64,000 bases of DNA from a virus (IMGVR_UViG_3300025096_000004:127496-191495); one strand, 5' to 3'; positions 43,067 through 64,000 are shown, numbered from the stretch's first letter. Numbers and translations are program-made. The notes: generated by a model not told the origin, from the sequence alone.

Positions 43067-43351
43067 ATGCATTTTTTACCATTTAATCGTCACTTAGTTG
43101 TCGATTTGATTGAACAAGAAGAAAAAATAGATGAAAGTATTATAGTGCTGCCATCTGATTATGAAAAGCCTGTGTCACCCTATGCCAAGGCTATACTTAT
43201 AGAAGCGTCCAGAGATTCAAAATTTTATGACTCTTTGCAAACCAATGATACAATATTGGTTGAAAGGAGAATGTTACATAAAATTGAAATTGATGACTCT
43301 TCTTTCTATTTAATATTAGAAAATTATATTTTTGGGAGAATTGATACATGA
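43067..43351 (+). CDS. groES: co-chaperonin GroES-like
   Basis: FLPFNRHLVV, mobile loop IIVLP, DTILV and LILENYIFG align by eye to the GroES pattern. Confidence 0.75.
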   Translation: MHFLPFNRHLVVDLIEQEEKIDESIIVLPSDYEKPVSPYAKAILIEASRDSKFYDSLQTNDTILVERRMLHKIEIDDSSFYLILENYIFGRIDT

Positions 43352-43941
43352 AATTAACAAAAGACAACCTTCGCTCTTTAATCAAAGAAGTGACTTTCGA
43401 GAGACAGAAAAGCTCTATGATTCTGTCCGAGACACCACCTGACACTGAAGATCCGCTTCCCAGCGACGTATCAAGGAAAACTTACGACAGAATCATAGAC
43501 GTTTTGGAGGGCCGAGACCCTTCCGTGGAAACCATCGTCATAATGTCGGGCCAAAACCCTATGGCCCAAGAAACAGACGCAGCTAAAAATGCCATGCTAG
43601 ACAATAGACTTAAAAAAGATCTCACCAGCATGAATTTGCAATTCATCCCGGTTGGTGGCAAATTTGACAATGATGAGGACTCTGTTTTGATTATGAACCC
43701 ATCTCGCGCACAGGCCGAAAGTTTAAACAGAAAATATAACCAATGGGGTTATGTCTGGGGCGAGAAATTGCCAAATTTTCAAATGATCCAAGTTGATTAT
43801 GATAAAGATCAGGGCGAATTTCAGGCTCCCGGCTCCAAAGTGACCACCTTTGTCATAAAGGACAAAAAAGCTCAATTGGCCCAAGACAATTATACTTTTG
43901 ATTACGAGTCTGGTCTTAAATTTCTCATTCCATTATATTGA
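43348..43941 (+). CDS. hypothetical protein (DUF3293-like pattern) with MKLTK..L..LIKE leader
   Basis: IMSGQNP...L..DL...E.S.LI...KYNQ pattern. Confidence 0.5.
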   Translation: MKLTKDNLRSLIKEVTFERQKSSMILSETPPDTEDPLPSDVSRKTYDRIIDVLEGRDPSVETIVIMSGQNPMAQETDAAKNAMLDNRLKKDLTSMNLQFIPVGGKFDNDEDSVLIMNPSRAQAESLNRKYNQWGYVWGEKLPNFQMIQVDYDKDQGEFQAPGSKVTTFVIKDKKAQLAQDNYTFDYESGLKFLIPLY

Positions 43942-43949
43942 GGTGATTA

Positions 43950-44660
43950 GTGAAAAGTATATTTTTATATGATGACAGCATCGGCAAGGTAGACCTTGTA
44001 CAGCATATGGGTTCTGACTTGACAGTTGTCAATAGCGCAAGGGTGTCATTTGGAATAGAAAAAGAAGAACTGGATACCCGAGACAAAAAGTTGATCAATT
44101 ATCTTATAAAACACAGACACACTTCAACTTTGGAGCACTGTAGTGTAACTTTTAAATTTACAGTTCCGCTATTTGTTCGATCACAGCACCACAGACATAG
44201 AACGTGGAGTTATAATGAAATATCCAGACGCTATACTTCTAAAGATTTACAATTTTATACTCCCGACTCGTTCAGAACCCAGCATGAATCAAATCGACAA
44301 GCATCTAATGAGGCTGAACTCATCGACCCGGTAATTATCCCAGATTTATATGATATTGGTTATGGAGTAACAGCTTCGAATTTAATAAATCGAGCCACTA
44401 AGGAGAGCGTTGGATTGTTTAACATGCTTTTAAAATCCGGCGTGTGTCGTGAGCAGGCAAGAATGGTTTTGCCTCAAAACTTATATACAGAATATTATGG
44501 AACGGTCAATCTTAATAATTTACTTAAGTTCGTCGACTTGCGAACCCACGAAGGAGCCCAATGGGAAATTAGAAGAGTTGCAGAGGCTTGTTTACAGTTT
44601 GCTAATGACCTTTTCCCAATAACGGTTAAGTCCTATAGGGAACTTAGAGGTGGGAAATAG
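43950..44660 (+). CDS. thyX: flavin-dependent thymidylate synthase
   Basis: RHR motif (QHHRHRTWSYNEISRRY), NSARVS and EQARMVLP. Confidence 0.97.
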   Translation: MKSIFLYDDSIGKVDLVQHMGSDLTVVNSARVSFGIEKEELDTRDKKLINYLIKHRHTSTLEHCSVTFKFTVPLFVRSQHHRHRTWSYNEISRRYTSKDLQFYTPDSFRTQHESNRQASNEAELIDPVIIPDLYDIGYGVTASNLINRATKESVGLFNMLLKSGVCREQARMVLPQNLYTEYYGTVNLNNLLKFVDLRTHEGAQWEIRRVAEACLQFANDLFPITVKSYRELRGGK

Positions 44661-44946
44661 GCCACTAAGGGTTGGCAATTTAATTATTTTGAGTGCTTTT
44701 GGCAAATCAGTTATGAAACCAAACAATGCCAAAGTCGGAATCGTGATTTCAGGCCCTTATGAAAAGAATTATATGTGTGCCAAAACTGGCCTATATGTCA
44801 AATATTTCACCTATGATGTTATCTTGGGAGAGGAACTACTTAAGGACATACCAGAAGACTTTATTTATAGAATGGGAGACGATGACCATGAAGAGAATCC
44901 ACGAGGGTTGGAAGAGATATTTGAACGAGATGGAGATGAAGAGTGA
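44650..44946 (+). CDS. small SH3/KOW-like hypothetical protein
   Basis: LRVGNLI...GIVIS pattern. Confidence 0.45.
   Translation: MGNRPLRVGNLIILSAFGKSVMKPNNAKVGIVISGPYEKNYMCAKTGLYVKYFTYDVILGEELLKDIPEDFIYRMGDDDHEENPRGLEEIFERDGDEE
44835..44842 (+). promoter_or_regulatory. putative late promoter motif
   Basis: ACTACTTA about 45 nt upstream of ATG 44888. Confidence 0.4.
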
Positions 44947-45619
44947 CCCCCATCAAAGTCGATTAAAAGTTGGCGAAAAGATGCGGGATTTTCTTTTTTC
45001 CCCTTTACAAATCGTAGATCCAAGTCTTGACATGTCAATGCGGGCAAGTGGGAATGTCGCCTCCACATATAACTTCTTATATTGGGCTGTGTTTGGGACA
45101 AAGCAAGAGAGAAAAGAAAACCCGGGAAGAATTTATCGCCCCAAATTGGGCCTAGAGTTTGCGCATCAAAAAGTTGAAATGCTGATGTTAAAACTTACTG
45201 ACGATGAAGAGAGAACTCTCGCTGCTGACATTGATACCATCATAGAGGTGGTAAAGACTAAACAACACCCCACAAGTAGTGTTCAAATACCAGTGACACT
45301 GACTGGGCATCCAAACGTGGAGCCTTCGTTTGGAACAACATTTTTCGGTGGCTCCGGGGCAGTTGACTGGGGCATGGGTGGTTCGATTTTGACACCAGAT
45401 GGCAAGAGTTATTTGATTTACATCTTGGAAAAAATTAAAAGCCAATTACCTGAAACAGATATTGAACCTCTCCCACCAAAGGACTTGACTAGTTTGTATT
45501 TCTTGGGCCAGCCCTTTGTTCCTGCTGGTCCTGCTGATGGTGTCGAAAAGGGACACTTCTCTTCAAAAGCATTTGATTATGAAGCTTTTTTGAAGTCAAT
45601 TGGCAGAGGTGGTAAGTGA
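44888..45619 (+). CDS. hypothetical protein with MKRIHEGWKRYLNE leader
   Basis: Start reassigned to ATG 44888 (GGGAG RBS, leader motif). Confidence 0.6.
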   Translation: MKRIHEGWKRYLNEMEMKSDPHQSRLKVGEKMRDFLFSPLQIVDPSLDMSMRASGNVASTYNFLYWAVFGTKQERKENPGRIYRPKLGLEFAHQKVEMLMLKLTDDEERTLAADIDTIIEVVKTKQHPTSSVQIPVTLTGHPNVEPSFGTTFFGGSGAVDWGMGGSILTPDGKSYLIYILEKIKSQLPETDIEPLPPKDLTSLYFLGQPFVPAGPADGVEKGHFSSKAFDYEAFLKSIGRGGK

Positions 45620-46425
45620 TAGGTCACACCTTTTCGATGGACAAATTGGTCATCGGGGGGAGTTTAGAGTCCCTTTTGTATTCATATATAACCGAAACTC
45701 CAATTGTTATTGACCAGCCCCGCCGACCGTCTGAAATAAGCGAAGTACACCCTACTTTGAACTTTTGTTTTTTAGGATATAGACCAGAAGAAAAGATATT
45801 TTCTCTTCAACTCTGGGATCGCCTATCTTTTTTATTATCGTTGTCTGGTCTTCTCTTGTTTCCCAATTCAATTGAAAACATTCGAGGAGAAGTCGGTAAA
45901 CTATATGTTTCGACTTATAATCTGGGAAAGTTTGAAGTCACATTTAATAAGTTAAAGAAGTTCGATTCGCAGTTGACAAATTTCGCATGGATGCATGATT
46001 GGTTCGCCGTTCGATCTGGAGGAAAACATGATATCGATAAGCTTGAAGATGAGGAATATTTAGCGAACAAATTGGTGTTCTACCCCTCTAAAAGAATCGG
46101 AGTCAGGGGAGCCAGAGATGTCGTGTCGATAACTTATCTCAAAATTGATAAGATTTATGATATTGAGTATTCTGAGGCGTATGTTTCTCTTAAAACTAGA
46201 ATGATGATGAAACAAGCAGGTATCCGAGGTACCAGTAAGGGATATGATAGGTATCGAAAAAGAAAATTTGATCCAATCAAAATAGAACACCTCCATCGAG
46301 ATATTACAGAGCAAATAGTTCCCAATATGACTTTGGGACAGATATTAGACTTACCAAGAAACACCAAGGGTAAATTATGGAAAATGACAGCAAGCCTTTT
46401 CAGACGACAGTTTCCTTTCATCTAG
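45616..46425 (+). CDS. hypothetical protein with degenerate dinucleotide-binding-like N-terminus
   Basis: DKLVIGGSLESLLYSY resembles a Rossmann beta-alpha start. Confidence 0.45.
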   Translation: MIGHTFSMDKLVIGGSLESLLYSYITETPIVIDQPRRPSEISEVHPTLNFCFLGYRPEEKIFSLQLWDRLSFLLSLSGLLLFPNSIENIRGEVGKLYVSTYNLGKFEVTFNKLKKFDSQLTNFAWMHDWFAVRSGGKHDIDKLEDEEYLANKLVFYPSKRIGVRGARDVVSITYLKIDKIYDIEYSEAYVSLKTRMMMKQAGIRGTSKGYDRYRKRKFDPIKIEHLHRDITEQIVPNMTLGQILDLPRNTKGKLWKMTASLFRRQFPFI

Positions 46426-47300
46426 CGGGAATCGTACCAGTTGCTGGCCAACCGTTGGATTTTGATCTTGACGTGCCTGATTGTCTTATGCCAATTGCCC
46501 CCAACTATACACTTGTTGAACATGCCATTTATGAATGTGCGATGGCCGGCTGCGAAACTATTTGGCTAGTGTGCAATGATGATATAGCACCCCTGATAAG
46601 ACATCGAGTGGGTGATTATATTCAAGACCCTGTTTATATTGGGAGAAAATCTAGATTCCCATCTACTGAAAGAATCCAGATTCCTATTTTTTATGTCCCC
46701 ATACACCCCAAAGATAGGGACAAGAGAGATTGTTTATCGTGGTCTGTTATCCACGGCGCTCTGATCAGTTTAAAGGTTAGCTCTCAATTGAGCAAGTGGG
46801 TTATTCCTGATAAGTATTTTGTTTCTTTCCCATATGGAGTGTATCCTGTTGAGGAGTTGCGAGAACATAGAAAGCTAATTTCTTCTAAAAATAATTTTTA
46901 TATATCTTATCAAGATAAGGACATATCGAATGATTTGTATTGTAGCTTTACTTTTGGTAAGGACGATTTTGTAAAGTATAGGAGAAACATTCGCAAAAAA
47001 GGGACTGGAATGTATACCACTGACGTAGTTGATGAGAGGGGCATACCCAGATCATTTCTTCCGGTAGAACAAAGATATTCCGCAAGGTTTTTTAAACCAT
47101 CAGATGTTTTTACTGATTTGGACATCTCCACATCAGCAATTTTTTCGCCATCTAGTTTTCAAAATATATCTTCGTGGCAGGAATATCGCGAATATATGAC
47201 CTCTGCGCTTTCTATGGAGATTAAACGCCCATGGAAGGGAATATTGAAATATAGAGAGTTTAATCCTATAGGCGTAGATGTCGTTGATAGCGAAAACTAG
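46377..47300 (+). CDS. sugar-nucleotidyltransferase-like (GT-A fold) protein, divergent
   Basis: AGIVPVAG...CLMPI...LVEHAIYEC..AG..TIWLV matches an NTP_transferase N-terminus but lacks G.GTR. Confidence 0.65.
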   Translation: MENDSKPFQTTVSFHLAGIVPVAGQPLDFDLDVPDCLMPIAPNYTLVEHAIYECAMAGCETIWLVCNDDIAPLIRHRVGDYIQDPVYIGRKSRFPSTERIQIPIFYVPIHPKDRDKRDCLSWSVIHGALISLKVSSQLSKWVIPDKYFVSFPYGVYPVEELREHRKLISSKNNFYISYQDKDISNDLYCSFTFGKDDFVKYRRNIRKKGTGMYTTDVVDERGIPRSFLPVEQRYSARFFKPSDVFTDLDISTSAIFSPSSFQNISSWQEYREYMTSALSMEIKRPWKGILKYREFNPIGVDVVDSEN

Positions 47301-47303
47301 TTA
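47296..47303 (+). promoter_or_regulatory. putative late promoter motif
   Basis: ACTAGTTA before the 47331 gene. Confidence 0.5.
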
Positions 47304-47330
47304 AATATATAGAAAGACAGGAGGATTTAC

Positions 47331-47543
47331 ATGAACACAACAAAGAAAAACCCTAATTTCCCCTCACATGGGCGGAAAATAACCTTTTCGCAGATGCGAA
47401 CTATTCGCTTGATAGCACTATTATCATTGTCATTGAATTGTTTTTTGTTTTTATGTTTGTGGATTTTAGAAGCTAGAGTATCCAAGTTGGAATCCAAACA
47501 TGTTGATAATACCCCTTTAGAAATCAATTTTGGGTCGAAATAG
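47331..47543 (+). CDS. small single-TM protein
   Basis: GGAGG RBS; hydrophobic LIALLSLSLNCFLFLCLWIL followed by a short coiled-coil-like stretch. Confidence 0.6.
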   Translation: MNTTKKNPNFPSHGRKITFSQMRTIRLIALLSLSLNCFLFLCLWILEARVSKLESKHVDNTPLEINFGSK

Positions 47544-47556
47544 AATACTTACTTAT

Positions 47557-47787
47557 ATGGAGCCAAAATTTTTCATAGGCCAAAATGTGGTTATAACCAA
47601 GAATGTTACCTTTCTTTTTGAAGATGTTGTCGTTCGTGCCGGAGAAGTCGGAGAGGTCGTGGAGCACGATTTTTTTGTTTTAGCGCCTGACGACGAACCA
47701 ATGATAGACTATATTGTTAAGGTTGGAACTCGAACTTTGTTTTTTTATGTATTTGAGTTGGCCCCATACCCAACATTGGAGGATTAA
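47557..47787 (+). CDS. small SH3/KOW-like hypothetical protein
   Basis: KFFIGQNVVI...GEVGEVV...DYIVKVG pattern. Confidence 0.5.
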   Translation: MEPKFFIGQNVVITKNVTFLFEDVVVRAGEVGEVVEHDFFVLAPDDEPMIDYIVKVGTRTLFFYVFELAPYPTLED

Positions 47788-47790
47788 GCT

Positions 47791-47976
47791 ATGCTTTCTG
47801 GCTGTGCTTTGCGTGTCATTAAAGAATGTGAGCCATTGATTATTGGAGAAACCGTATATTGTATTGAAGATTGCCCCAAAAGGCAAATAATTAGGGTGTG
47901 GTGCAGCCGCACTGTATTTGGAGTCAATGAGGTAATCTTCAACTATGCAAGAAGAGAGTGCTTTAAAATTATTTAA
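47791..47976 (+). CDS. hypothetical protein
   Basis: GGAGG RBS, 61 aa. Confidence 0.5.
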   Translation: MLSGCALRVIKECEPLIIGETVYCIEDCPKRQIIRVWCSRTVFGVNEVIFNYARRECFKII

Positions 47977-48199
47977 AGTAGGTGAATTAGTTCAATATGT
48001 ATCGTACTATAACGATCCCGATGGCCCGTGGAAAATGTTTGGCGATCTGGGCATCATTGTGTCTATTAGGGTTGTTGAGGATAAATACCAAGTTGTTAAA
48101 GTTAGGTGGTTTTCCGATAATTCTGAAATTGATATGGCACCAGAGTGTTTGATGAAAGTCAAAATTTCTGAAGATTCTGACTTGACAGGTGAACAATAG
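47945..48199 (+). CDS. small SH3/KOW-like hypothetical protein
   Basis: FKVGELV...LGIIVSI...VVKVRW pattern. Confidence 0.55.
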   Translation: MQEESALKLFKVGELVQYVSYYNDPDGPWKMFGDLGIIVSIRVVEDKYQVVKVRWFSDNSEIDMAPECLMKVKISEDSDLTGEQ

Positions 48200-48210
48200 T
48201 TTGTTATAAT
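48182..48210 (+). promoter_or_regulatory. sigma70-type promoter
   Basis: TTGACA-17-TATAAT. Confidence 0.85.
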
Positions 48211-48228
48211 ATATAATATGGAGAAAAT

Positions 48229-48405
48229 ATGTCTTATTCTACAGAAGAAAGTCAATGGATGTTTGTAACCAGCACGATTAGAAAATTAAAAACCCTAAAT
48301 CACTGGGTTATGACTGGGGAACCGCACAAGCAGCATATAAAGAATGCAATAAAGGAATTAGAAAAAGCTCAAGAAATCTTGCGAAAAAAGGTTGACAAAG
48401 ACTAA
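48229..48405 (+). CDS. small hypothetical protein (58 aa, below track cutoff)
   Basis: Own promoter and GGAG RBS; MSYSTEESQWMF...KKVDKD. Confidence 0.55.
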   Translation: MSYSTEESQWMFVTSTIRKLKTLNHWVMTGEPHKQHIKNAIKELEKAQEILRKKVDKD

Positions 48406-48420
48406 GTTTCATGTTATATT
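48392..48420 (+). promoter_or_regulatory. sigma70-type promoter
   Basis: TTGACA-17-TATATT before dnaE. Confidence 0.85.
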
Positions 48421-48446
48421 ATTAATATGAAACGTGGAGGTTTTAT

Positions 48447-51400
48447 ATGAATGATATTAAATTTGTGGGGTTGCATGCACATAGCGGCGTAGGTTCCCCA
48501 TTTGATGGTTTTGGGTATCCCCAAGAACATATGGAGTTTGCCTTTAACAATGGCTGTGAGGCTCTCGCCCTAACAGATCATGGAAATATGAATGGTCTGG
48601 CATACCAGATACAACATGCCAAAAGAATGTTGGCTGATGGGAAAAACTTCAAGCCGATCTTTGGGGTTGAAGCCTATTTTATTAAAGATTTGGCGGAATG
48701 GAAGGATGAATTTGAAAAGCATAAACTAGATAAGAAGAAGGCGAGACAGATTGATGCCGACCAATCGGGCACTAATGTGGAAAACGAGGGCGCATCTAAA
48801 AGCAAAAGCCGTTCCTCGATCAATCGCAGCCGACATCTTGTCCTCTTGGCAATGAATCAAGAAGGTTTAAACAACATTTTCAAACTTATTTCGGAGAGCT
48901 ATACCGGTGAATATTTCTATAGAAAGCCTCGAATCGACTACAATCTATTACGTAAGTATGGTGATGGCGTTATTGCTGCTTCTGCTTGTCTTGGTGGCGT
49001 ATACGCTGGCTGCTATTGGGAAAAGCGCGATGAAGGCGAAGAAGCAGTTCTCGAATGTATGCGCGAGACAACCCAAACGATGCTCGACATCTTCGGAGAC
49101 CGCTGGATCGGAGAGCTTCAATGGAACGCAGTGCCAGAACAGCACGAACTCAACAATTACATTATCCAAATGCACAAAGAGTTTGGCATCCCCCTGATTT
49201 CTACCGCAGATTCTCACTATCCTCACCCAACAGCTTGGAAGGATCGTGAACTTTATAAAAGACTTGGCTGGCTTGGTAAAGGCAAGCCCGAGTGGCTAGA
49301 TATGAACCTCCCCCTTTCCGTTGACGAGATCGATTATGAACTCTATCCCAAGAACGGCAATCAAATGTGGGAGGACTACAAAAGATATTCTAAACAATGT
49401 GGAGTTGAATACGATGATAAACTTATACTGGATAGCATTCAAGAAACTCATAGAATTGCTTTTGAGCGTGTTGAAAGATTCGATCCTGATGTTACCGTTC
49501 GTCTTCCTGATTTTGTGGTTCCTGCTGGTTTTACTGCCGACGATTATTTAGAACGCCTATCTATCACTGGTTTAATTAATTTTGGAAAAACCAGCGGCAA
49601 AGATTTGGCAGAATATCACAAAAGATTGAAGCATGAGTTGGCCATCATTGCCGATCGTGGTTTTTCGAAGTACTTCTTGACAATGAAAGCAATCTCCGAT
49701 AAGACCAATGAGATCCAATTAGCAGGTCCCGGAAGGGGTTCTGCCGCTGGTTCGCTGGTAGCATATGTCCTCGGCATTACACAGATCGACCCCATCAAGT
49801 ATGGGCTTCTGTTCTCTCGTTTTATGCGCTCAGATGCCACCGATTATCCCGACATTGATTACGATGTGTCAGACCCAATGACGCTTAAAGCGAAGCTTAT
49901 TGAAGAATGGGGAAGCAATACGGTTGTCCCTATTTCTAATTGGAACACATTACAGCTTCGCTCTCTCATCAAGGACATCTCTAAATTCTATGAGATCCCG
50001 TTCAATGAAGTCAACAACGTGACGAATAAGATGATGCATGAGGCAACCCCAATTGCAAAGAAGAAGCATGGCATCAAAGCCGGGGTCTATACTCCAACCT
50101 TTCATGAGGTCATGGATTACTCCGAGAGCCTTAAGGCATTTTTTAATAAATATCCTCAAGTCAAGGATCACGTTCAGGCATTGCAGGGCTCCTATCGCTC
50201 ATGCTCCAGACATGCCGGTGGTGTTGTAATAGGTGAAGAACTGGACAAGTTCATGCCCCTTATAGCATCGAAGGGGGTTAGACAGACCCCTTGGTCTGAA
50301 GGCCAAAACGTTCGCCAATTAGAGCCAATGGGATTCATTAAGTTTGACATCCTTGGGCTCTCCACGTTGCGTATGATTGAGGATTGTATCTCTCGGATCT
50401 TGACACGTCACCATGGGATTGAGAACCCCTCCTTCTCTGACATCAAGTCCTACTACGATACCCACCTGCACCCGGATGCGATAGACCTACAAGACCAGCA
50501 GGTCTTTGAGAACATCTTTCACAAAGGCCAGTGGATCGGTGTGTTCCAGTTCACAGAGAACGGAGCCCAACGTTTTGCCAAAAAAGTTAAGCCCCGATCA
50601 ATTATCGATCTCTCTGCTATCACTTCGATCTATCGACCCGGACCTTTGTCTGCTGGTGTTGACCGTGACTTCGCCGAAGCAAAGGAACAACCTCAGTATG
50701 TTGAATACCTCAACGACACTGTCCGCGAGATCACAGAAGAGACCTATGGATTCCTCATCTTTCAAGAACAGATAGCCATGCTTGCACACAAGTTAGGTGA
50801 CAATTTGAGTCTGGATGAAGGGAACCTCCTCCGTAAACTACTTACAAAGAAGGGAACGGGGAAAGGGAATGAGGTCAAAGAAAGGATCTACAACAAATTC
50901 ATCGAAGGATGTAGACATAAATGCATTCCGGAAAAGGAAGCAATCAGTCTCTGGAGAAATTTTGAGTATTTTTCAGGCTATGGCTTTAATAAGTCTCATG
51001 CCATTGCTTATTCTATTATCAGCTATCAGTGCGCTTATCTTTGCAATTATTATAAACCCGAATGGACCGCAAGCTTCCTCGACAGAGAACCAGAGACAAG
51101 AAAAGAAAAAGCAATAAACCTTGCTAAGCAGCATGGCTTCGCCATTCGAGACTTGAACATTAATACATCTGGCTATCGGTGGGATCTGGTGGATGACAAG
51201 ACATTGGTCGCTCCACTGACAACGATCAAAGGACTTGGAGAGAAAGCAATTGAACAAATCATTGCCAATCGACCCTTTGTCAATGCTGAAGAACTCTTGT
51301 TCAATGAGAACATTGTCTACTCTAAGTTCAACAAAAAGGCAATTGATGTCCTTTGTCGGGCGGGAGCTATGACTGACCTTATTGATGACAGATTCACTGG

Positions 51401-55608: not shown

Positions 55609-56169
55609 ATGGCTAAGAAAAAACTTTTAAGCGAAGCACAAATCCGTCGCTTCATGGGTCTTGCAGGCATGAAACCTATGGTTGTCAGCAATGTCATCCA
55701 AGAGATGGGAATGTCTTATGAAGCAGAAGAAGACCCAGCAGATATGGAAGCTGGCGCTCCACCCGCTGCCGAAGACCCCGCTGCTATGGCAGGTGAAATG
55801 CCCGGCGATGAAATGCCCGGTGATGAAATGCCCGGAGAGCCAGAAGGCGACATGGAAGTTTCTGTCGATGAGAAAGACATTGAAGAATTGGAAATGGCTT
55901 TTGACAAGGTGATGTCTGCACTGAAAGGTGAAGAGCCAATGGAAGAGCCAATGGAAGAACCAATGGAAGAGCCCCCAATGGAGCCTGTCGAAGAACCGCT
56001 CGAAGAGCCTGTCGAAGATGAAGAAGCGGCAATGGATGATGAGCTAGCTGAGGTCAGCCTTCAAATGTCTGAAGAAGAAATTGTTCAAGAAGTTGCCCGC
56101 CGTGTAGCCAAAAGAATTCTCAAAGCAAAGCGAGCCAAGAAAGCTTTAGATGAAGCCCTTGGTAAATAA
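55609..56169 (+). CDS. acidic low-complexity protein, putative prohead core/internal protein
   Basis: LLSE..RRFMGLAG N-terminus, E/P/M repeats, CATATTTA upstream at 55568 and its own terminator. Confidence 0.55.
   Translation: MAKKKLLSEAQIRRFMGLAGMKPMVVSNVIQEMGMSYEAEEDPADMEAGAPPAAEDPAAMAGEMPGDEMPGDEMPGEPEGDMEVSVDEKDIEELEMAFDKVMSALKGEEPMEEPMEEPMEEPPMEPVEEPLEEPVEDEEAAMDDELAEVSLQMSEEEIVQEVARRVAKRILKAKRAKKALDEALGK
55795..56013 (+). repeat. short in-frame tandem repeats (15-nt x3; 12-nt x6-7)
   Basis: GAAATGCCCGG at 55795, 55810 and 55825; GAAGAGCCAATG-type units from 55930. Confidence 0.9.
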
Positions 56170-56205: not shown

Positions 56206-56236
56206 TGAAAAAGGCAGGCCATGATCTGCCTTTTTT
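56206..56236. terminator. intrinsic terminator, possibly bidirectional
   Basis: AAAAAGGCAG-loop-CTGCCTTTTTT. Confidence 0.8.
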
Positions 56237-56250
56237 ATTATGGAGGAAAT

Positions 56251-56649
56251 ATGTTTTGGATGCAAATCTTTTTAGCCTTTACGGTCGGAATGATTGTATG
56301 TAAGTTGTTCGGCGGCCTTTTGTCCTTGGGTTATTCGGCTTTTTTGTTTCAAAAAGTGCATGACGATTCATTGAGAATCATGGGAACTATTTGTCAGGAT
56401 CTGTCTGAGGTACATCATTTAAAACTTTTGGAACTTCGAAGGATGGGAAAGCCGGAAGAAGAAATAGAGATCGCCCGAAATGTTTCTAATTATCATTTAA
56501 ACTCAATTCGAGCCACTATAGTTCGCAATTTCATATCGACTTTTCCCAAAGCCCAATCTCATATTTTAAGGTTTTCTGATTGGGAATCTGCGATGCAAGA
56601 ATTAGATAGACTAATTAAGAAAGAGAAACAAAATAAATTTAATAAATAA
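56251..56649 (+). CDS. membrane-anchored hypothetical protein
   Basis: GGAGG RBS; N-terminal hydrophobic segment. Confidence 0.6.
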   Translation: MFWMQIFLAFTVGMIVCKLFGGLLSLGYSAFLFQKVHDDSLRIMGTICQDLSEVHHLKLLELRRMGKPEEEIEIARNVSNYHLNSIRATIVRNFISTFPKAQSHILRFSDWESAMQELDRLIKKEKQNKFNK

Positions 56650-56658
56650 GAGGGCAAA

Positions 56659-57288
56659 ATGTCTAAAAAAATTAAACTGGAAACCGAAGAGGATTCCGCA
56701 AAAGAACAAGATCAGGACGCAGACGAATCGGCAGCAATCGCAGGTTTGCTTTCAAGCTTAGAAAGGCCTGACATGCGCAGCATGGCCTTGTTTGGAGAAA
56801 TCGATGAAGAAAAGGCCTCTGACATTTGTGTCGGCCTTCTTCTATTAAGTAAAAACAGTGATGAAGAGAAGCTTGGTCCCATTAACTTCTATATATCAAC
56901 TTATGGTGGCAATGCTGATGACATGTTTTCCATAATTGATATGATGGATATTGCAAAGCGAAATTGTGAAATCCGCACCTACGGCCTTGGAAAGGTTATG
57001 TCAGCAGGTGTCCTTTTGTTGGCCAATGGAACACCGGGCAGCCGCTATGTTGGCAAACATTGCCGGATTATGATTCATTCATGCAATGCAGGATCTGTTG
57101 GAGATATTCATAATTTAAAAAATGAAATGGCCGCAATACAACACCAGCAAGAACAATACATCAACGCGTTGGTAGAAGTATCATCACTCACCAAGAGGCA
57201 GTTGAACCGTCTTCTTGACAGAAAGGTTAATGTTTATTTAACAGCCACTGAGGCAATTGAGTATGGTATTGCTGATGAAATTATGTAG
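56659..57288 (+). CDS. clpP: ClpP-like protease subunit
   Basis: LFGEID, INFYISTYGG, GKVMSAG (Ser), RIMIH (His) and YLTA.EA.EYG.AD. Confidence 0.9.
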   Translation: MSKKIKLETEEDSAKEQDQDADESAAIAGLLSSLERPDMRSMALFGEIDEEKASDICVGLLLLSKNSDEEKLGPINFYISTYGGNADDMFSIIDMMDIAKRNCEIRTYGLGKVMSAGVLLLANGTPGSRYVGKHCRIMIHSCNAGSVGDIHNLKNEMAAIQHQQEQYINALVEVSSLTKRQLNRLLDRKVNVYLTATEAIEYGIADEIM

Positions 57289-57299
57289 GAGATAAATTA

Positions 57300-58220
57300 A
57301 TGGCAATTGATAGAGAATTTTACAACGAAGCCTCAGCCGCAAAGCTCGGCTGGGAACCCGAGTGGTTTGGTGTATCAACACACGACGACAGACTCACCAG
57401 AGCTATTCGCAAGTTTCAAAAAGACAACGAACTGACTGCCGATGGCCTCTGTGGCCCATCTACTTTTCGTAGAATCTGGACCCATCGAGAGTCAAATATA
57501 GATGACTATCGACAACCCTATGTTGTCGAGAAAGAAACCTCAGTCATTGTTCACAATGGCAAGTTCTTTCCAATTGAATGGCCTCGGGTTGTCCTGTGGT
57601 CAGAAAACCCATCCGGCCTCGATGCCAAAGAGGGAACCTATTCTTCTTATGCCGGCCACCCTGACAGGAAGCCCAGTTTCTTCGTTACACATTGGGACGT
57701 ATGTCTTAGCAGCAAGTCGTGCCAATCTGTGCTTGCGAAGCGAGGAATCAGCATCCACTACATGATTGATAATGATGGTACAATTTACCAAGCATTGGAC
57801 ACCCAACATGCCGCATGGCATGCCGGAGGGCGCAGGTGGAACCATAGCTCCATCGGGGTCGAAATAAGTAACGCATTTTCACTGAAGTACCAAAAAACAT
57901 ATATATCTCGGGGGTTCGGAGAGCGCCCAGTAGTCACAGATGCCCGTGTACATGGAACCAAATTAAAGCCGCACTTAGGCTTCTATCCGGTACAAATTGA
58001 AGCCTTGAAGGCATTGTATAAAGCCATTCACGGAGCTACGGGTATCCCGTTGGAAACCCCACTCGACAGCAATGGTGATATGTTAACGAAAGTGTCCTCA
58101 ACTGCGAAAGCAAACAAATTCAAGGGCTTCTTATCGCACTTCCATCTCACCAGAGGCAAGATCGATTGTGCAGGTCTTGACATCCAAAGGCTTTTAGAGG
58201 AGATCAAGAATGATCAATAA
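57300..58220 (+). CDS. endolysin: peptidoglycan-binding domain plus N-acetylmuramoyl-L-alanine amidase
   Basis: AIRKFQ...LTADGLCGPST (PG_binding_1); THWD, SIHYMID.DGTIYQ, AWHAG, SIGVE and SHFH...KIDC. Confidence 0.9.
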   Translation: MAIDREFYNEASAAKLGWEPEWFGVSTHDDRLTRAIRKFQKDNELTADGLCGPSTFRRIWTHRESNIDDYRQPYVVEKETSVIVHNGKFFPIEWPRVVLWSENPSGLDAKEGTYSSYAGHPDRKPSFFVTHWDVCLSSKSCQSVLAKRGISIHYMIDNDGTIYQALDTQHAAWHAGGRRWNHSSIGVEISNAFSLKYQKTYISRGFGERPVVTDARVHGTKLKPHLGFYPVQIEALKALYKAIHGATGIPLETPLDSNGDMLTKVSSTAKANKFKGFLSHFHLTRGKIDCAGLDIQRLLEEIKNDQ

Positions 58221-59232
58221 GTTAAGCGAACTAGACAAGCTAATCACAGAAGTCATGAGTATGAGGGGCGTGGTTGCAGAGAAGGAGATGGCCACAAAAG
58301 ATATTGACTTCGACCAAGAGGAAAAGCAACTTACAATCAAACTGCCGCAGTTCCGAATCACAGAGGATTGGGGAACCAAAGAGGGAAGACCCGATGTAAT
58401 AAAAAAATTCTTTTCCAAAGTTGAAGGGGACACACTTGAGGCCAAAATCAAATCTTTGAACGATTTTGTTACCAATTGCGATGAAGAGTCGTGCATTAAC
58501 GATGTCTCTGCTCCACAAGTTTTAACAAATCTCGTGACACTGGACATCTTGGCATCAATCATTCATCAATTCGGCCCTTCGCCTGCTGGCTTCTTGTTCG
58601 AAGCATTCTTGGCAGCCCTTGTGAGCGGCACTCAAATCGTTCCTGATAAATCAATTTCCACTGAAGACATTATAAATAAAGATGGCCAACCAATAAGCAT
58701 TAAATTATTAAAGAAGGATGGTTATGTTCACGGCAGCTATAAAGACCTCGCCGCAGCTTGGACCCAAACCGGCCCAGATAAAGAAAAACCAGTTGTACAG
58801 GAAGCCGGAGAAGCATGGGACGGCACAATGAAATATCTTGTTGTCAACAAGTTGGGCTCCGAAGATGAACTGATCCTTCAGTGGTATCTGTTTCCCGTCA
58901 CTAAGGTGCTTATGGCCGACATGCTAAAGGCAACAAAGTCCTCCGGCAAAAAAGGCCGCTATGCCGATATACACGGAACCCAATTCCGAATTAAAAAGGA
59001 ATACTATAAGCAATTCCCCCTTGCCACGCTAAACATTGGATCACGATCCAATATTGTTGAAATAGCCAGACGATACGCAGACAAGCTTGGAGATTCAATG
59101 TTTCAAATTTATTCATTGCTTGATTCTCTTGGCAACAACATTAACAACTACTTCTTAGACCAAGACACCAAAGCAGCGAAACTCGCCGCCGACCAAGCAG
59201 AAGATCTCAAAAAAGCAATAGAAAATTATTAA
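58210..59232 (+). CDS. hypothetical protein with possible PD-(D/E)XK-like motif
   Basis: GFLFEAFLAAL...EDI...ISIKL; LDKLITE leader. Confidence 0.45.
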   Translation: MINKLSELDKLITEVMSMRGVVAEKEMATKDIDFDQEEKQLTIKLPQFRITEDWGTKEGRPDVIKKFFSKVEGDTLEAKIKSLNDFVTNCDEESCINDVSAPQVLTNLVTLDILASIIHQFGPSPAGFLFEAFLAALVSGTQIVPDKSISTEDIINKDGQPISIKLLKKDGYVHGSYKDLAAAWTQTGPDKEKPVVQEAGEAWDGTMKYLVVNKLGSEDELILQWYLFPVTKVLMADMLKATKSSGKKGRYADIHGTQFRIKKEYYKQFPLATLNIGSRSNIVEIARRYADKLGDSMFQIYSLLDSLGNNINNYFLDQDTKAAKLAADQAEDLKKAIENY

Positions 59233-59240
59233 CTTTTTAC

Positions 59241-59268
59241 TTGACAAAACATCAAAATGTGTTATATT
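59241..59268 (+). promoter_or_regulatory. sigma70-type promoter
   Basis: TTGACA-16-TATATT before groEL. Confidence 0.85.
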
Positions 59269-59289
59269 ATATAAGAACATGGAGGATAA

Positions 59290-60858
59290 GTGAAACACTA
59301 TCAAAATGGACAAGAACTCAATGTAAAGATTTTAAGAGGCATTGATATTCTTGCAGACAATGTGGCATCCACACTTGGACCAAAAGGCCGCAATGTGATC
59401 CTATATCACAAAGAAGAAAACATTCCCGTTATTACCAAAGATGGTGTGACGGTAGCAAAGTTTGTCGAGCTTGAAGATCCCTTCGAGAATGTCGGAGCGC
59501 AGATCATCAAGCAAGCAGCAGCCAAGACGAACGAGACAGCAGGTGATGGAACAACCACCTCCACCGTATTGGCCCGAGGCATACTTAAAAAAGCACAAAA
59601 ATACCTTATGGCTGGGGTGTCGCCTATTGAGCTTAAGCGAGGTATTGATCTCGCAGTGGCTGCAATCTGTACCAATTTGAAGGAAATGGCAACCCCAATT
59701 CAATCAGAGGAAGATATAGCACACATTGCAACCATCTCGGCTAACAATGATAAAGTTATTGGTACACTGGTTGCAACAGCAGTTGATAGAGCGGGTAAGG
59801 ATGGCTCGGTGATAGTTGAAGAGGCCCGTTCACTTGAGACGAGCTTGGATCTTATTGAAGGATTTCGTTTCGACTCAGGCTATGCAGCTACTGCGTTCAT
59901 TACGAATGAGCGTAGTGGAACAGTTGAATATGAGACTCCGATGATTCTAGTGACGGACGAGAAGCTTGAACGTGTTGACCAAATTCTACCAGTCCTTGAA
60001 TTAGCATCCCGAGAAAATCGCCCTCTTCTGGTTATTGCGTCTGATATTGTGGACCAAGCCCTCGCCGCTCTTATTATGAATGCGGTTCGTGGAACGATGA
60101 AAGTGGCTGCAATTAAAGCTCCACGTTATGGCGAAGAAAGACGCTCAATAATGAAAGATCTCTGCCTTTCAACCGGAGCCACTATGATTACCCGAGAAAA
60201 CTCGTTAACCCTAAAAGATGTTAAATTAGCACACTTTGGAGGGTGTAAAAAGGTATCTGCGGATAAAGGCTGGACAACAATAGTTGGAGGTAAAGGAAAC
60301 TATGATGAGATCGATAAGAAGATTGAAGCACTTAAAACAGAAATTCAACAGACTGAATCACTCAAAGCTTGTGAAAGAATACAGGAACGGATTACAAGAC
60401 TTGCGTCTGGCATTGCTGTTATTCGTGTTGGCGCTGCTACTGACGTTGAAATGATTGAAAAAAAGCACCGCATCGATGATGCACTTGAAGCAGTCCGCTC
60501 AGCCCAAGAGGAAGGGATTGTCTCTGGAGGTGGTACTGCCCTACTCCGGGCCGTCCGTGATCTCATGGTCGAGACAGAGAATGAGGAACAAAATTTGGGC
60601 GTTAAGATAGTTTTCGAAGCCATCGAAGAGCCACTAAGACAAATGTGTCTTAATGCTGGAGAGTCCCCGGATATTATCGTTGACAAGGTAAAAAGCCTAG
60701 AGTTTGGCTGGGGTTACGATTTTGCGTCTGGTCAGGTCAAGGACCTATATCTAGCTGGGATTATCGATCCGGTCAAGGTTACACGATGTGCGCTGCAAAA
60801 TGCCGCCTCAGTGTCATCAACTTTAATCACGACTAACCATGCGATTGTTTGCCAGTAG
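59290..60858 (+). CDS. groEL: chaperonin GroEL (Cpn60)
   Basis: STLGPKGRNV, ITKDGVTVA, AGDGTTT, IDDAL and IIDPVKV; no GGM tail. Confidence 0.97.
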   Translation: MKHYQNGQELNVKILRGIDILADNVASTLGPKGRNVILYHKEENIPVITKDGVTVAKFVELEDPFENVGAQIIKQAAAKTNETAGDGTTTSTVLARGILKKAQKYLMAGVSPIELKRGIDLAVAAICTNLKEMATPIQSEEDIAHIATISANNDKVIGTLVATAVDRAGKDGSVIVEEARSLETSLDLIEGFRFDSGYAATAFITNERSGTVEYETPMILVTDEKLERVDQILPVLELASRENRPLLVIASDIVDQALAALIMNAVRGTMKVAAIKAPRYGEERRSIMKDLCLSTGATMITRENSLTLKDVKLAHFGGCKKVSADKGWTTIVGGKGNYDEIDKKIEALKTEIQQTESLKACERIQERITRLASGIAVIRVGAATDVEMIEKKHRIDDALEAVRSAQEEGIVSGGGTALLRAVRDLMVETENEEQNLGVKIVFEAIEEPLRQMCLNAGESPDIIVDKVKSLEFGWGYDFASGQVKDLYLAGIIDPVKVTRCALQNAASVSSTLITTNHAIVCQ

Positions 60859-60859
60859 C

Positions 60860-60867
60860 ACTATTTA
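60860..60867 (+). promoter_or_regulatory. putative late promoter motif
   Basis: ACTATTTA 8 nt before an SD-less ATG. Confidence 0.6.
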
Positions 60868-60875
60868 TTATTGCT

Positions 60876-61139
60876 ATGACCAATGACCACCATCAAGAAC
60901 TTAGAGAGATAATTTTAGACCTCAAGAACGATATTGAGCGCATGGCAGAACGTCAATCCGGCATGATCGACGACGTTAAAAAAATCAAAGAAGCAATATA
61001 TAATCCTGACCAAGGACTCTATGCAAGAATAAAGGCATTGGAACAATGGAAAGAGTCCTCTCAAAAGGTGACTTGGGTTATTATGACAACTGTTTTGGGT
61101 CTAGCAACAACAACTATTTACAAGTTTATCGTTGGATAA
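60876..61139 (+). CDS. coiled-coil plus C-terminal TM protein (holin/XhlA-like)
   Basis: Heptad-rich N-terminal part; WVIMTTVLGLATTTIYKFIVG hydrophobic end. Confidence 0.5.
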   Translation: MTNDHHQELREIILDLKNDIERMAERQSGMIDDVKKIKEAIYNPDQGLYARIKALEQWKESSQKVTWVIMTTVLGLATTTIYKFIVG

Positions 61140-61141
61140 AC

Positions 61142-61170
61142 TTGACAAACACTTATAAATGTGTTATATT
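61142..61170 (+). promoter_or_regulatory. sigma70-type promoter
   Basis: TTGACA-17-TATATT. Confidence 0.85.
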
Positions 61171-61196
61171 ATTATTACTTACACCTTGGAGGTTTT

Positions 61197-61589
61197 ATGA
61201 GAGTAAGAGTTACACACGGCATCGAACTGAGTCAGGTGCCAAACAAAATTAAAGAAATGGTACAAGAGATTGTTAATGAGCTTGGCAATAGTCTTGAAAG
61301 CTTGGAAGCTTCAGCCATGTTAAGCAACGATCTTGCTTATTTGCCCGCTGTAGTGGATATTCTTGATAGGGTTCGAAAGAATCTAACGGAAGTAGATCAA
61401 GCTCTAGCTGATTCTCACGCCATATCAAGCGGCCTTGTTAGGCATTTGAAATCGCTTAACGCGCCTTCTGAAAGTGCCACCAACGTTGCGCCTTCTGAGG
61501 ATGAACTCAAAGCTATGAGTGAAATGTTGGCAGACGTAGGAGACAAGATTGATGCAATCAACCAAGAATCTGATGTTCATCAAGGGTGA
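61197..61589 (+). CDS. hypothetical helical protein
   Basis: ATG 61197 with GGAGG RBS. Confidence 0.65.
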   Translation: MRVRVTHGIELSQVPNKIKEMVQEIVNELGNSLESLEASAMLSNDLAYLPAVVDILDRVRKNLTEVDQALADSHAISSGLVRHLKSLNAPSESATNVAPSEDELKAMSEMLADVGDKIDAINQESDVHQG

Positions 61590-61782
61590 TCTTGTGCATG
61601 TGCCACAATCGGCCATACTGTATGGATCATCATCACCCAACTTAAAAATATATGTCATCAAGAAGCCAATGTTGGCTATTTTCATGGATTATAAAAACGA
61701 CGGAATGTCTGAAATAGTAATGGACGGACAAAAGTGGTTGGTCAAAAATAAAGAAATATTTTCAAACAAGGAAACATTATGA
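61573..61782 (+). CDS. small SH3/KOW-like hypothetical protein
   Basis: MFIKGDLVHVP pattern. Confidence 0.5.
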   Translation: MFIKGDLVHVPQSAILYGSSSPNLKIYVIKKPMLAIFMDYKNDGMSEIVMDGQKWLVKNKEIFSNKETL

Positions 61783-62060
61783 TGTTAGTAGAACTCGTGC
61801 AGATTAAAAAAAGACAAGGGCGACACTATCTAAGTAAGATTTATTTAAATCCTAGGCACATAGTATATATAAGTGAAGATGTGGGAACCAAGAACACAAT
61901 TAGTGAAAGCAACGATCTTGGATTGGTTCCAGAGACATCCTTCAGCATTATCCGCTTAAATGATAATGGCCTGCACAGTGAGATTAGTGTTGTTGGCGAT
62001 CCTCAAATGATTGAGGGCAAGATATTTTTTAAAAAAAAGCGAAATATTCTAAGGGGGTGA
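61779..62060 (+). CDS. hypothetical protein (FlbD-like pattern possible)
   Basis: IYLNPRHIVYISE...SIIRL. Confidence 0.45.
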   Translation: MMLVELVQIKKRQGRHYLSKIYLNPRHIVYISEDVGTKNTISESNDLGLVPETSFSIIRLNDNGLHSEISVVGDPQMIEGKIFFKKKRNILRG

Positions 62061-62061
62061 C

Positions 62062-62310
62062 ATGAGATATTTTGAAATTTATGCTTGGACGGATTGTCCT
62101 TATTGTAGTGATGCCAAAGCCCTTCTGATTGAGAATGGTGAGCAATTTTTATTTTGCTGCATTGACCAGTCAGAGATGTTGCTTCAACATATCAAAACAA
62201 AGTGGGGCTGGCAAACAGTTCCTTTGATCTTAGAGAAAAACACCACCAATGAAGATGTTATATTTGTTGGTGGTTTTACTGATTTGCAAAAGCATTTGGA
62301 GAACAAATGA
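62062..62310 (+). CDS. glutaredoxin
   Basis: CPYC, TVPLI and VGGFTDL motifs. Confidence 0.92.
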   Translation: MRYFEIYAWTDCPYCSDAKALLIENGEQFLFCCIDQSEMLLQHIKTKWGWQTVPLILEKNTTNEDVIFVGGFTDLQKHLENK

Positions 62311-62645
62311 GAGTTAATAAACCATGGGGTCATGAGATCCGCTGGGCGCTGAACGAGAAGTATATTGGAAAGCTGCTTAGAATCGAACCGGGACAAAAAC
62401 TATCAAGACAATATCATCAAGAGAAAGATGAGACTATTTATGTTCTTGATGGCGTTCTTGTTCTTGAGATTGGCTCGAAAGAAGACATGATTAGAATCAT
62501 AATGCACCCGGGCTCATATCGTCGTATAGAGCCGGGAACTATCCACCGTTTCGCCGCACCATCCGACGGATGTACATTGATTGAGGTTTCAACACCAGAA
62601 ATTGATGATGTGGTTAGACTTGAAGATGACTATGGTCGAGTATAA
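62307..62645 (+). CDS. cupin (mannose-6-phosphate isomerase-like)
   Basis: KPWG, SRQYHQEKDETIYV, PGTIHRF and EVSTPE motifs. Confidence 0.88.
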   Translation: MRVNKPWGHEIRWALNEKYIGKLLRIEPGQKLSRQYHQEKDETIYVLDGVLVLEIGSKEDMIRIIMHPGSYRRIEPGTIHRFAAPSDGCTLIEVSTPEIDDVVRLEDDYGRV

Positions 62646-62654
62646 TAATTAACT

Positions 62655-62662
62655 ACTATTTA
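62655..62662 (+). promoter_or_regulatory. putative late promoter motif
   Basis: ACTATTTA 5 nt before an SD-less ATG. Confidence 0.6.
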
Positions 62663-62667
62663 GTATT

Positions 62668-63261
62668 ATGAAACTTATAATGGAAAACTGGAGGAGCTTC
62701 TTAAAAGAAGATAGTACTCCGCTTGTTGTTATTTATTTTGGTGGTTTCAAGCCACCACACAAGGGTCATCTCGCTGTTGTTGAGGAGTACCTCTCAATGC
62801 CCGAGGTTGAACGTGTTTATATTCTGTTCGGCACATCCCCACGCCATTCAGCCGATCGATCTCTCTATCTTGATGAGACTCATTCGCAAGCTGTTTGGCA
62901 TTTATTTTTGGATTCTCTATCTTCGGATAAAGTAACAGTGCTTCCACCAACATCGGGAAATACTATGGTCGCAGCAGCGGAACTCGCATGGCTACCAGAG
63001 CTATCTGGAAAGCGAATAACTGCTGGCTATGGAGCTAAAGAGCCGAAGTATGGCCAATCGTTTATCCGTGTTGTTGAGTCTCTTGCTGAAGAAAAGGGAC
63101 AACCTCTGGCGATCCCCGTGGCAACACCAAGCTCGATAGATGTTCCGGGGGTATCATCGACTAAAATACGGGAGGCTCTCGTTCAGAAGGACATGAAATA
63201 TTTAGAACAAGCTGTCCCCGCTGGTGTTTCTGTCGAAGAATATATAAATATTTTAACTTAA
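62668..63261 (+). CDS. HxGH-class (cytidyltransferase-like) nucleotidyltransferase with MKLIMENWRSFLKE leader
   Basis: FGGFKPPHKGH and VSSTKIRE motifs. Confidence 0.85.
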   Translation: MKLIMENWRSFLKEDSTPLVVIYFGGFKPPHKGHLAVVEEYLSMPEVERVYILFGTSPRHSADRSLYLDETHSQAVWHLFLDSLSSDKVTVLPPTSGNTMVAAAELAWLPELSGKRITAGYGAKEPKYGQSFIRVVESLAEEKGQPLAIPVATPSSIDVPGVSSTKIREALVQKDMKYLEQAVPAGVSVEEYINILT

Positions 63262-63264
63262 TTC

Positions 63265-63293
63265 TTGACAAGATAGAAGAAACAGGTTATACT
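63265..63293 (+). promoter_or_regulatory. sigma70-type promoter for tmRNA
   Basis: TTGACA-17-TATACT. Confidence 0.8.
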
Positions 63294-63305
63294 ATATATT
63301 ATAGA

Positions 63306-63640
63306 GGGGGCGTAATGGTTTCGACAGGGTAGAACTCGGAGGACGAGTGCAGGTAGGTAAGATACAACCTTAAAAGTTCAATTGCAATAACTGCAAACAA
63401 TAATTATTATTTCGAACAAGCCTTAGCTGCTTAATCGGGTGGCCGTCCCGAGCCATCTAACCAAGAGGGACAAAACAACAGACAAGTTGTAAAAATCAAA
63501 CAACTCGGTGCAATAGGACAGTAAGCATCGTTTCACAACTGTCTACCTTTGTTAGTTTGTGATAGTAAACTAACTAAACCTGTGAATGACTCTATTCTAA
63601 GCTACTGTGGACGAGGGTTCGACTCCCTCCGCCTCCACCA
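63306..63640 (+). ncRNA. ssrA: tmRNA (one-piece)
   Basis: 5' GGGGGCGTAATGGTTTCGAC; 3' GAGGG-TTCGACT-CCCTC-CGCCTCC-A-CCA; G3-U acceptor pair; tag ORF 63393..63434 ANNNYYFEQALAA*. Confidence 0.97.
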
Positions 63641-63656
63641 TTTAGGAAAATAAGTT

Positions 63657-64000
63657 ATGAGTGATGCAAAATTAATATTTGAAAACTGGCGCGGCTTTCT
63701 TAATGAAAGAAAGTCAGATGCCCTTTATAAAGCGATAGTCGATTTTTTTGTCGATGTACTCTGGAAACCAAAAAATTTTAGAGTCTCATATGTACCAGCC
63801 GGTGAACCAATAAAACACTGGAGCCGCGATGACAAGGACTGGTGGCAAGCCTTTCATACAGGCGAGCCCCTTAGAGCCCCGGGAAGTGAAAACGAAAAAC
63901 ACGCCGCTATGTATGGAGATGTTATAGCAGATGAGGAATATCTTTACAAGAGATATTTAGAGATTCTTGCGGACAACAATGTCACAGATGATCCGATTTT
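63657..64000 (+). CDS. hypothetical protein with KLIFENWRGFLNE leader (3' partial)
   Basis: Open from ATG 63657 to the window end; absent from the ORF track. Confidence 0.7.
   Translation, partial: MSDAKLIFENWRGFLNERKSDALYKAIVDFFVDVLWKPKNFRVSYVPAGEPIKHWSRDDKDWWQAFHTGEPLRAPGSENEKHAAMYGDVIADEEYLYKRYLEILADNNVTDDPI

Follow-up and report, generated by a model that had tools for sequence, protein, structure and literature searches.

Bases 127496-191495 of the virus contig IMGVR_UViG_3300025096_000004, that is, the last 64 kb of one contig of 191,495 bp (hereafter the window, 64,000 nucleotides in all), encode several otherwise dissimilar proteins that begin with a short, conserved N-terminal leader. 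Two classes of leader can be told apart. The ENWR leader (class B) reads M-K-L-I-M-E-N-W-R-x-[FY]-L-x-E, while the second (class A) reads MK[LI][TS]KxQLxxIIKE and is found on at least 10 genes, including one at window position 43348. The five leader-bearing genes treated here, and the late-type motifs (ACTAnTTA) that accompany them, are given below; positions are those of the window unless genome positions, counted along the whole contig, are named.

43305-43312, + strand: variant late-type motif TCTATTTA
43348-43389, + strand: class A leader MKLTKDNLRSLIKE, identified by the class A pattern and the residue-14 register
43348-43941, + strand: leader-bearing gene for a DUF3293 protein, 197 aa (PF11697, E 1.2e-8, residues 69-132)
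44835-44842, + strand: late-type motif ACTACTTA, 53 nt before the start at 44888
44888-44929, + strand: ENWR-variant leader MKRIHEGWKRYLNE, identified by pattern scan
44888-45619, + strand: leader-bearing gene of unknown function, 243 aa
56610-56617, + strand: late-type motif ACTAATTA, heading an operon of a ClpP-like protease, an amidase and the gene at 58210
58210-58251, + strand: degenerate class-A-like leader MINKLSELDKLITE, identified by the residue-14 register
58210-59232, + strand: gene of unknown function, 340 aa, last in the late-motif operon
62655-62662, + strand: late-type motif ACTATTTA, 5 nt 5' of the start codon
62668-62709, + strand: ENWR leader MKLIMENWRSFLKE of the predicted adenylyltransferase gene, identified by pattern scan
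62668-63261, + strand: leader-bearing gene for a predicted NadD/NMNAT-like nucleotidyltransferase, 197 aa (PF01467, Foldseek)
63657-63707, + strand: ENWR leader MSDAKLIFENWRGFLNE, identified by pattern scan
63657-64000, + strand: leader-bearing gene running past the end of the window and contig, and resuming in the contig's first bases

An earlier reading of this DNA, made from the sequence alone (the sequence-only reading), had described one motif common to the proteins at 62668, 63657 and 44888, and related amphipathic starts at 43348 and 58210. All five N-termini lie where it placed them and the common ENWR motif stands, but the other two are not vague relatives of it: the five leaders are two classes of a single register, with hydrophobic residues at positions 3, 8, 11 and 12 and Glu at position 14. 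A six-frame scan of the window gave three instances of the strict ENWR pattern, each at a gene start (62668, 63657 and 44888), and the whole genome holds nine ENWR genes, with 9/9 motifs N-terminal. Their products are a HAD-like protein, two tandem ParB-like proteins (DGHHRW motif) encoded immediately after the prohead protease gene, the nucleotidyltransferase and five proteins of unknown function. The bodies that follow the leaders are mutually unrelated by BLAST, as had been claimed. The generic motif (hydrophobic-x-x-hydrophobic-hydrophobic-x-E) is enriched 4-fold within the first 24 residues (p 5e-8), and ends exactly at residue 14 in 15 genes where about 0.4 are expected, so that the motif proves more frequent at N-termini than chance would have it. 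A Sec or Tat signal peptide was considered and ruled out, as such a peptide has a hydrophobic core of at least 10 residues behind a basic N-region, whereas the leader is amphipathic and charged (K2, E6, R9, K13, E14) and lacks a hydrophobic run.

The individual genes differ in how clearly they carry the leader. The start at 44888 is an internal Met of a longer open reading frame (ORF), although it is the likely start because a ribosome-binding site (GGGAGA, 44874-44879) lies 8 nt upstream; the protein has no Pfam or PHROG match, and a protein-atlas look-up gave no usable function. The same look-up was equally uninformative for the 58210 protein, whose leader MINKLSELDKLITE keeps the register, being hydrophobic at positions 8, 11 and 12 with a Glu at position 14; the homologue of this protein at locus L133 begins MKLTNEVLEKMILEE, a clear class A leader. 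Relatives of the 63657 gene in L045 and L094 likewise bear the leader. Relatives of the 43348 and 44888 proteins were sought among viral contigs, and none were found there. The class A leader of the DUF3293 protein at 43348 is retained in all of its 60+ orthologues (P0027-P0093). A further conserved element, SM[IL]L[ST]E, spans residues 23-28 of these orthologues, and from the sequences the two elements together could form a two-step propeptide.

The leader extends well beyond this genome. Viral contigs were scanned with a degenerate DNA pattern encoding M-E-N-W-R-x-[FY]-[LIM]-x-E, which matched at least 118 of them. Among the matches listed, 126/126 lie 0-14 residues from an ORF start, mostly as MKL[IL]MENWR, and the bodies downstream form at least 68 clusters that are unrelated by BLAST. 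Most of these bodies have no Pfam family; the rest include P-loop kinases, NUDIX proteins, peptidase M23, C5 DNA methylase, GNAT proteins and a tRNA-ligase phosphodiesterase domain. Of the 118 loci listed, 97 have genes in common with this genome, with portal proteins at ~60-80% identity, which makes the leader the mark of a single T4-like lineage. Run against 596 Gb of bacterial and archaeal genomes, the same pattern gave 32 sites, which is about chance level, nearly all of them internal or in spurious ORFs. The leader is real, strictly N-terminal, virus-specific and portable. True MKL[IL]MENWR leaders were also seen on three small contigs from metagenome-assembled genomes (L175, L180 and L185, in Undinarchaeota, WOR-3 and Isosphaeraceae bins), and these contigs are probably mis-binned phage DNA.

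Searches outside the uncultured lineage returned little. Pattern scans of five phage records, four cultured phages and the uncultured metagenomic assembly LR756508, gave matches at chance level only. Leader queries of 20 residues found nothing in cultured phages by tblastn, at marginal sensitivity for peptides of this length, and tblastn with the body of the protein at genome position 38682 returned just hypothetical proteins of cluster-C mycobacteriophages, which are uninformative on virion location. The literature was searched for the motif, for a marine counterpart of the T4 tag and for a virion proteome of a leader-bearing phage, and none of the three was found.

The source of the window is an uncultured T4-like phage. 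Its genes lie nearly all on the + strand, and include in the window a tail sheath gene, further structural genes, ThyX and an amidase; GroEL-like and GroES-like genes are also present, named from sequence and, for GroES, from position as well. Megablast of the region against GenBank phages gave no DNA-level match, and the closest capsid proteins (~44% identity) are those of Flavobacterium phage immuto, Microcystis phage Mel-JY01 and an uncultured 484-kb phage. The late-motif operon of the window runs in the order ClpP-like serine protease (56659-57288; phrog_94, E 2e-19), amidase (57300-58220) and gene 58210, giving the phage a second protease beside the gp21-type enzyme. A transfer-messenger RNA (tmRNA) gene at 63306-63640, with tag peptide ANNNYYFEQALAA and a promoter TTGACA-N17-TATACT at about 63267-63297, lies between two leader-bearing genes. 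The components of the head that bear on the leader are the following.

5780-6988, + strand: acidic scaffold-like protein, just 5' of the capsid gene, [LI]xE-rich and 14% Glu
7009-7185, + strand: N-terminal propeptide of the gp23-like major capsid protein, ending at LLRE59|A60

The gp23-like major capsid protein is encoded at 7009-8940 (Pfam Gp23, E 2e-74). Its residues 1-59 align with the propeptide of T4 gp23, and LLRE59|A60 shares an alignment column with the T4 gp23 cleavage site FLTE65|A66, the Glu-Ala at E59-A60 being invariant across the four T4-like phages aligned; cleavage at L-x-E|A59/60 is thus predicted from the alignment with T4. There are five [LI]xE sites in this propeptide. A gp21-family prohead protease is encoded at genome 121949-122560 (PF03420, Peptidase_S77, E 8.7e-36; phrog_207, E 1.6e-60). 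The 402 residues of the scaffold-like protein contain 16 [LI]xE sites, a density of 4.0 per 100 aa where the proteome as a whole has 1.2, and a late motif lies 42 nt upstream of its gene. Family searches with this protein gave no match, so its proposed role as scaffold is drawn from position and composition. The claim that capsid and scaffold proteins carry the same sites as the leaders, with KLTE and LLRE in the former, is borne out.

Leader genes occupy particular places around this machinery. In 21 related loci a leader gene lies beside the S77 protease gene and the head module keeps one gene order: terminase and portal, then two conserved genes, the gene for a small membrane protein, the protease gene, that for a conserved protein of 130-150 residues and an S21-like gene. 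The gaps between these conserved genes hold leader genes of varying identity, and class A and class B interchange at the same slot between phages. The slots correspond in position to the prohead core genes 67 and 68 of T4. The conserved protein of 130-150 residues (genome 124455-124856, with homologues in 19 loci) is encoded directly past the protease and leader slot, and starts MNKxELKKxLKPLIKECIKEVIFEEG, a sequence with three stacked [LI]-x-E sites. We regard this protein as a candidate component of the prohead core, to which leaders might dock.

How the leader relates to the protein behind it is best seen in the gene at 62668. As the sequence-only reading had proposed, its product is a nucleotidyltransferase by sequence and fold: PF01467 is matched from residue 22 (E 1.8e-4), the best Foldseek matches are NaMN/NMN adenylyltransferases (NadD; E 3e-6, TM 0.58-0.63), and the sequence has PHKGH and SSTKIR, fitting the (H/T)xGH and SxTxxR motifs of the NadD/NMNAT fold. 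The body is accordingly predicted to be NadD/NMNAT-like, an assignment that does not extend to substrate specificity. In the AlphaFold model (pLDDT 88.7) residues 2-11 form a low-confidence helix, residues 12-18 a coil, and the first strand starts at residue 19, which places the leader, as modelled, outside the enzyme fold as an add-on. Orthologues at 45-73% identity occur in four forms: with the ENWR leader, with another leader (MKIKVLKE), leaderless, and fused to a second small domain. The leaderless forms begin MFVAYFGG at strand 1. One natural fusion (P0008) combines the adenylyltransferase with an ENWR leader and with a domain resembling the 96-residue protein encoded at genome 33252.

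The presence of the leader goes with a difference in transcription signals. ACTAnTTA is strand-specific, with 43 occurrences on the + strand against 4 on the - strand, and it precedes scaffold, sheath, tube and baseplate genes. The sequence-only reading had noted this structural-gene motif or a variant of it upstream of three leader genes, and it is indeed present at 62655, 44835 and, as a variant, 43305; the wider association that it drew between motif and leader is weak gene by gene (5/20 in this genome; p 0.08 in relatives) but clear at the level of the operon. The nearest upstream signal of leader genes is late-type in 103 cases and sigma-70-type in 12, against 605 and 286 for other genes (p 4e-7), and a sigma-70 promoter lies within 80 nt upstream of 0/125 ENWR genes as compared with 58/1261 other genes (p 0.008). 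Among adenylyltransferase orthologues, 12/12 leaderless genes lie behind TTGACA-N17-TATATT and a GGAGG ribosome site, whereas this sigma-70 promoter is found at none of 12 leader-bearing genes, 7 of which have the late motif. One leaderless orthologue occupies the syntenic site in a sister phage with a 90% identical GroEL, and the motif-N5-ATG layout of 62655 is repeated in the orthologues of L136 and L150. The pairing of leader and promoter in this family is a new observation, and the HAD nucleotidase family has the same pairing. In the adenylyltransferase tree the leaderless forms are one clade nested among tagged forms, and the split of 12 versus 12 is therefore one event and not 24 independent observations. 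We infer that an enzyme wanted at the very start of infection could be supplied in either of two ways, pre-made and injected (leader with a late promoter) or made on arrival (early promoter and no leader). The motif often lies just 3-5 nt before a start codon with no ribosome-binding site (window 62655-62670; genome 37150, 42207, 65160 and 137097; L136 and L150), which hints at leaderless late mRNAs.

The closest known parallel is the capsid targeting sequence of phage T4, MKTYQEFIAE (PMC8442874). Mutagenesis of this tag has linked residues 4 and 7 with targeting and residues 8 and 10 with processing, and Asp at position 10 blocks cutting while loading is kept (PMC9026906). When the two peptides are anchored on the final Glu, T4 Y4, F7, I8 and E10 fall on W8, F/Y11, L/I12 and E14, the four positions at which the ENWR leader is most conserved. 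Both are short N-terminal peptides on unrelated proteins that end in [LI]-x-Glu, with an aromatic-x-x-aromatic-aliphatic-x-Glu spacing (T4 residues 4, 7, 8 and 10), and both phages have a gp21-family protease and a gp23-type capsid protein, the predicted cleavage site of the one here aligning with that of T4. The class A leader has aliphatic residues where the ENWR leader and T4 tag have aromatic ones, and T4 gp24 (MAKINELLRE) has the same spacing, again with aliphatic residues. The leader differs from the T4 tag in length (14 residues against 10), with no detectable homology beyond the pattern, and in the existence of at least two interchangeable classes. The number of tagged genes is also larger: T4 has a handful, whereas ~20 are present in this one genome and the relatives add up to at least 68 cargo families. 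Many of the proposed cargoes are predicted enzymes rather than small basic proteins.

Other systems share parts of this arrangement. In the giant phages phiKZ, 201phi2-1 and SPN3US a T4-related prohead protease cuts many of the inner-head (ejection) proteins at x-x-Glu motifs, and these proteins include paralogues with conserved N-termini, but their propeptides are mostly >100 residues long, their motif is [S/A/G]-x-E, and they have no single portable 14-residue tag (PMC5694885). The Dar anti-restriction proteins of phage P1, which include a methyltransferase-helicase, are enzymes loaded into the capsid, injected and active before phage gene expression, as is proposed here, although their loading follows an ordered protein hierarchy with no common cleavable leader (PMC9024508). 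A cultured T4-like relative, Flavobacterium phage vB_FspM_immuto (MW353176; capsid protein 44% identical), has several small proteins around its head module that start M-x-x-N-F-[ND]-L-[RK]-x-F-L-x-E-N-K-L, with the same F-L-x-E core as the ENWR form and a different sequence upstream of it. These proteins (L124, 2730-4030 and 10340-10567) offer a tractable system for testing the tag idea.

Taken as a whole, the analysis points to the 14-residue leaders as the counterpart, in this lineage, of the T4 capsid targeting sequence, a reading that we regard as probable, if well short of certain. It is favoured because the phage has T4-like head machinery (S77 protease, Gp23 capsid protein and an aligned propeptide site); because the leader matches the functional positions of the T4 tag; because the leader is portable, being N-terminal, outside the fold, attached to at least 68 body clusters and present or absent on orthologues; because selection acts at the protein level, the synonymous sites of the leader being variable; because leader genes occupy head-module slots beside the protease and are biased to late transcription units; and because the leader is virus-specific, with cellular matches at chance level. 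The leader would act in three steps. Its amphipathic N-terminal helix would dock the late-made protein on the scaffolding core during prohead assembly, the gp21-type prohead protease would then cleave past the final [LI]-x-Glu (Glu14), and the mature protein would be retained in the head and enter the next cell with the DNA. The predicted cargoes include a NAD-type adenylyltransferase, nucleotidases, P-loop kinases, NUDIX proteins, ParB/Srx-like proteins and a cell-wall peptidase.

The sequence-only reading had proposed a portable address tag for packaging diverse enzymes into the head, and it is supported in part: every testable computational prediction of this idea was borne out, while the docking, cleavage, retention and injection of ENWR proteins are themselves steps that we infer. 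Several observations weigh against capsid targeting. Many cargoes resemble ordinary cytoplasmic enzymes, and the likeness to the T4 tag consists in a 7-residue pattern, which is too little sequence for a homology statistic. The ENWR leader is absent from the cultured phages scanned (immuto, Mel-JY01, Pelagibacter phage HTVC008M and Prochlorococcus phage P-SSM2), and the search pattern itself accounts for part of the invariance of M-E-N-W-R among the viral contigs. With regard to timing, the status of ACTAnTTA as a late promoter is itself deduced from position. The motif stands beside 5/20 individual leader genes in this genome, and in relatives beside 16.8% of leader genes as against 11.4% of others (p 0.08). 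Gene 63657 has no nearby late motif and lies 392 nt downstream of the sigma-70-type promoter of the tmRNA, and the coupling of leader and promoter rests on about two independent events.

Three rival explanations were weighed, and all rank below capsid targeting. The leader, being a detached amphipathic helix on ordinary enzymes (kinases, NUDIX, HAD, adenylyltransferase) in a phage whose late operon encodes a second, ClpP-like protease, might instead be a docking or regulatory propeptide for some other late process, by which the protein joins another late complex or is held inhibited until it is cut, perhaps by the ClpP-like protease at 56659-57288. We consider this unlikely, given that the [LI]-x-E at the end of the leader is also that of the capsid maturation site, and that the leader fits the mapped functional positions of the T4 tag and belongs to genes that lie between those for portal, protease and scaffold. 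Moreover, with the leaderless form expressed early, a tagged form kept in the late cytoplasm would shift the time at which the enzyme acts.

A second possibility is that the common 5' end is a DNA-level recombination cassette, kept for gene shuffling and encoding a peptide that has no function, in the manner of the promoter-early stem-loop (PeSL) modules that are a feature of T4-type phages. The tandem ParB-like genes do have identical DNA upstream of the leader, and the cargo at fixed genomic slots does differ between relatives. Within the leader, however, the Leu, Ile, Arg, Glu and Asn codons differ between copies while the residues stay constant; this synonymous variation indicates selection on the peptide and is not the conservation expected at the DNA level. 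The same peptide also occurs on at least 68 families in phages with portals just 60-80% identical, and the cassette seems to us very improbable. Chance, or a composition effect of Lys/Glu-rich protein starts, might produce a single case such as 58210 (~0.4 genes are expected at residue 14), but for classes A and B it is refuted by the register count (15 genes against 0.4), the N-terminal placement of 9/9 motifs in the genome and 126/126 listed viral motifs, and the cellular-genome control, which is at chance level and not N-terminal, leaving it a negligible prospect.

A broader proposal can be built on capsid targeting, and we advance it tentatively, at somewhat below an even chance. An abundant marine T4-like lineage would preload dozens of enzymes by means of the 14-residue tag, with genes toggling between injected and made-on-arrival forms, and the virion would carry a variable early proteome, probably directed against host defences or at nucleotide/NAD pools. 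If capsid targeting is true, uncultured ocean phages deliver a large and fast-changing set of enzymes with their DNA, where in T4 just a few proteins are known, and the reading of 'late' versus 'early' functions in marine phage genomes changes. Hundreds of unknown proteins would become candidate injected effectors, possibly anti-defence proteins, and the leader would provide a compact packaging tag of natural origin. That tagged forms go with late promoters and leaderless forms with early ones is a simple genomic rule, testable across many gene families.

Some further N-termini and the ends of the contig deserve mention. A third N-terminal class, MK[IV][KR][IV]xK, is found on three large paralogues (genome 30359, 33837 and 37173), on adenylyltransferase orthologues (MKIKVLKE) and on a cargo family that elsewhere carries ENWR; it occurs at loci L154-L156, L071, L115, L018 and L016, and many copies have no [LI]-x-E end. 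The last 284 bases of the contig (window 63717-64000) and the first 276 (genome 2-276) are just 87% identical, and this end without clean closure may reflect diverged terminal copies or the join of two population variants. Finally, the gene at window 55609-56169 and its counterpart at L133:11415-12047 have a conserved N-terminus, LxEAx[IV]RRFMGLAGM, that belongs to neither leader class.

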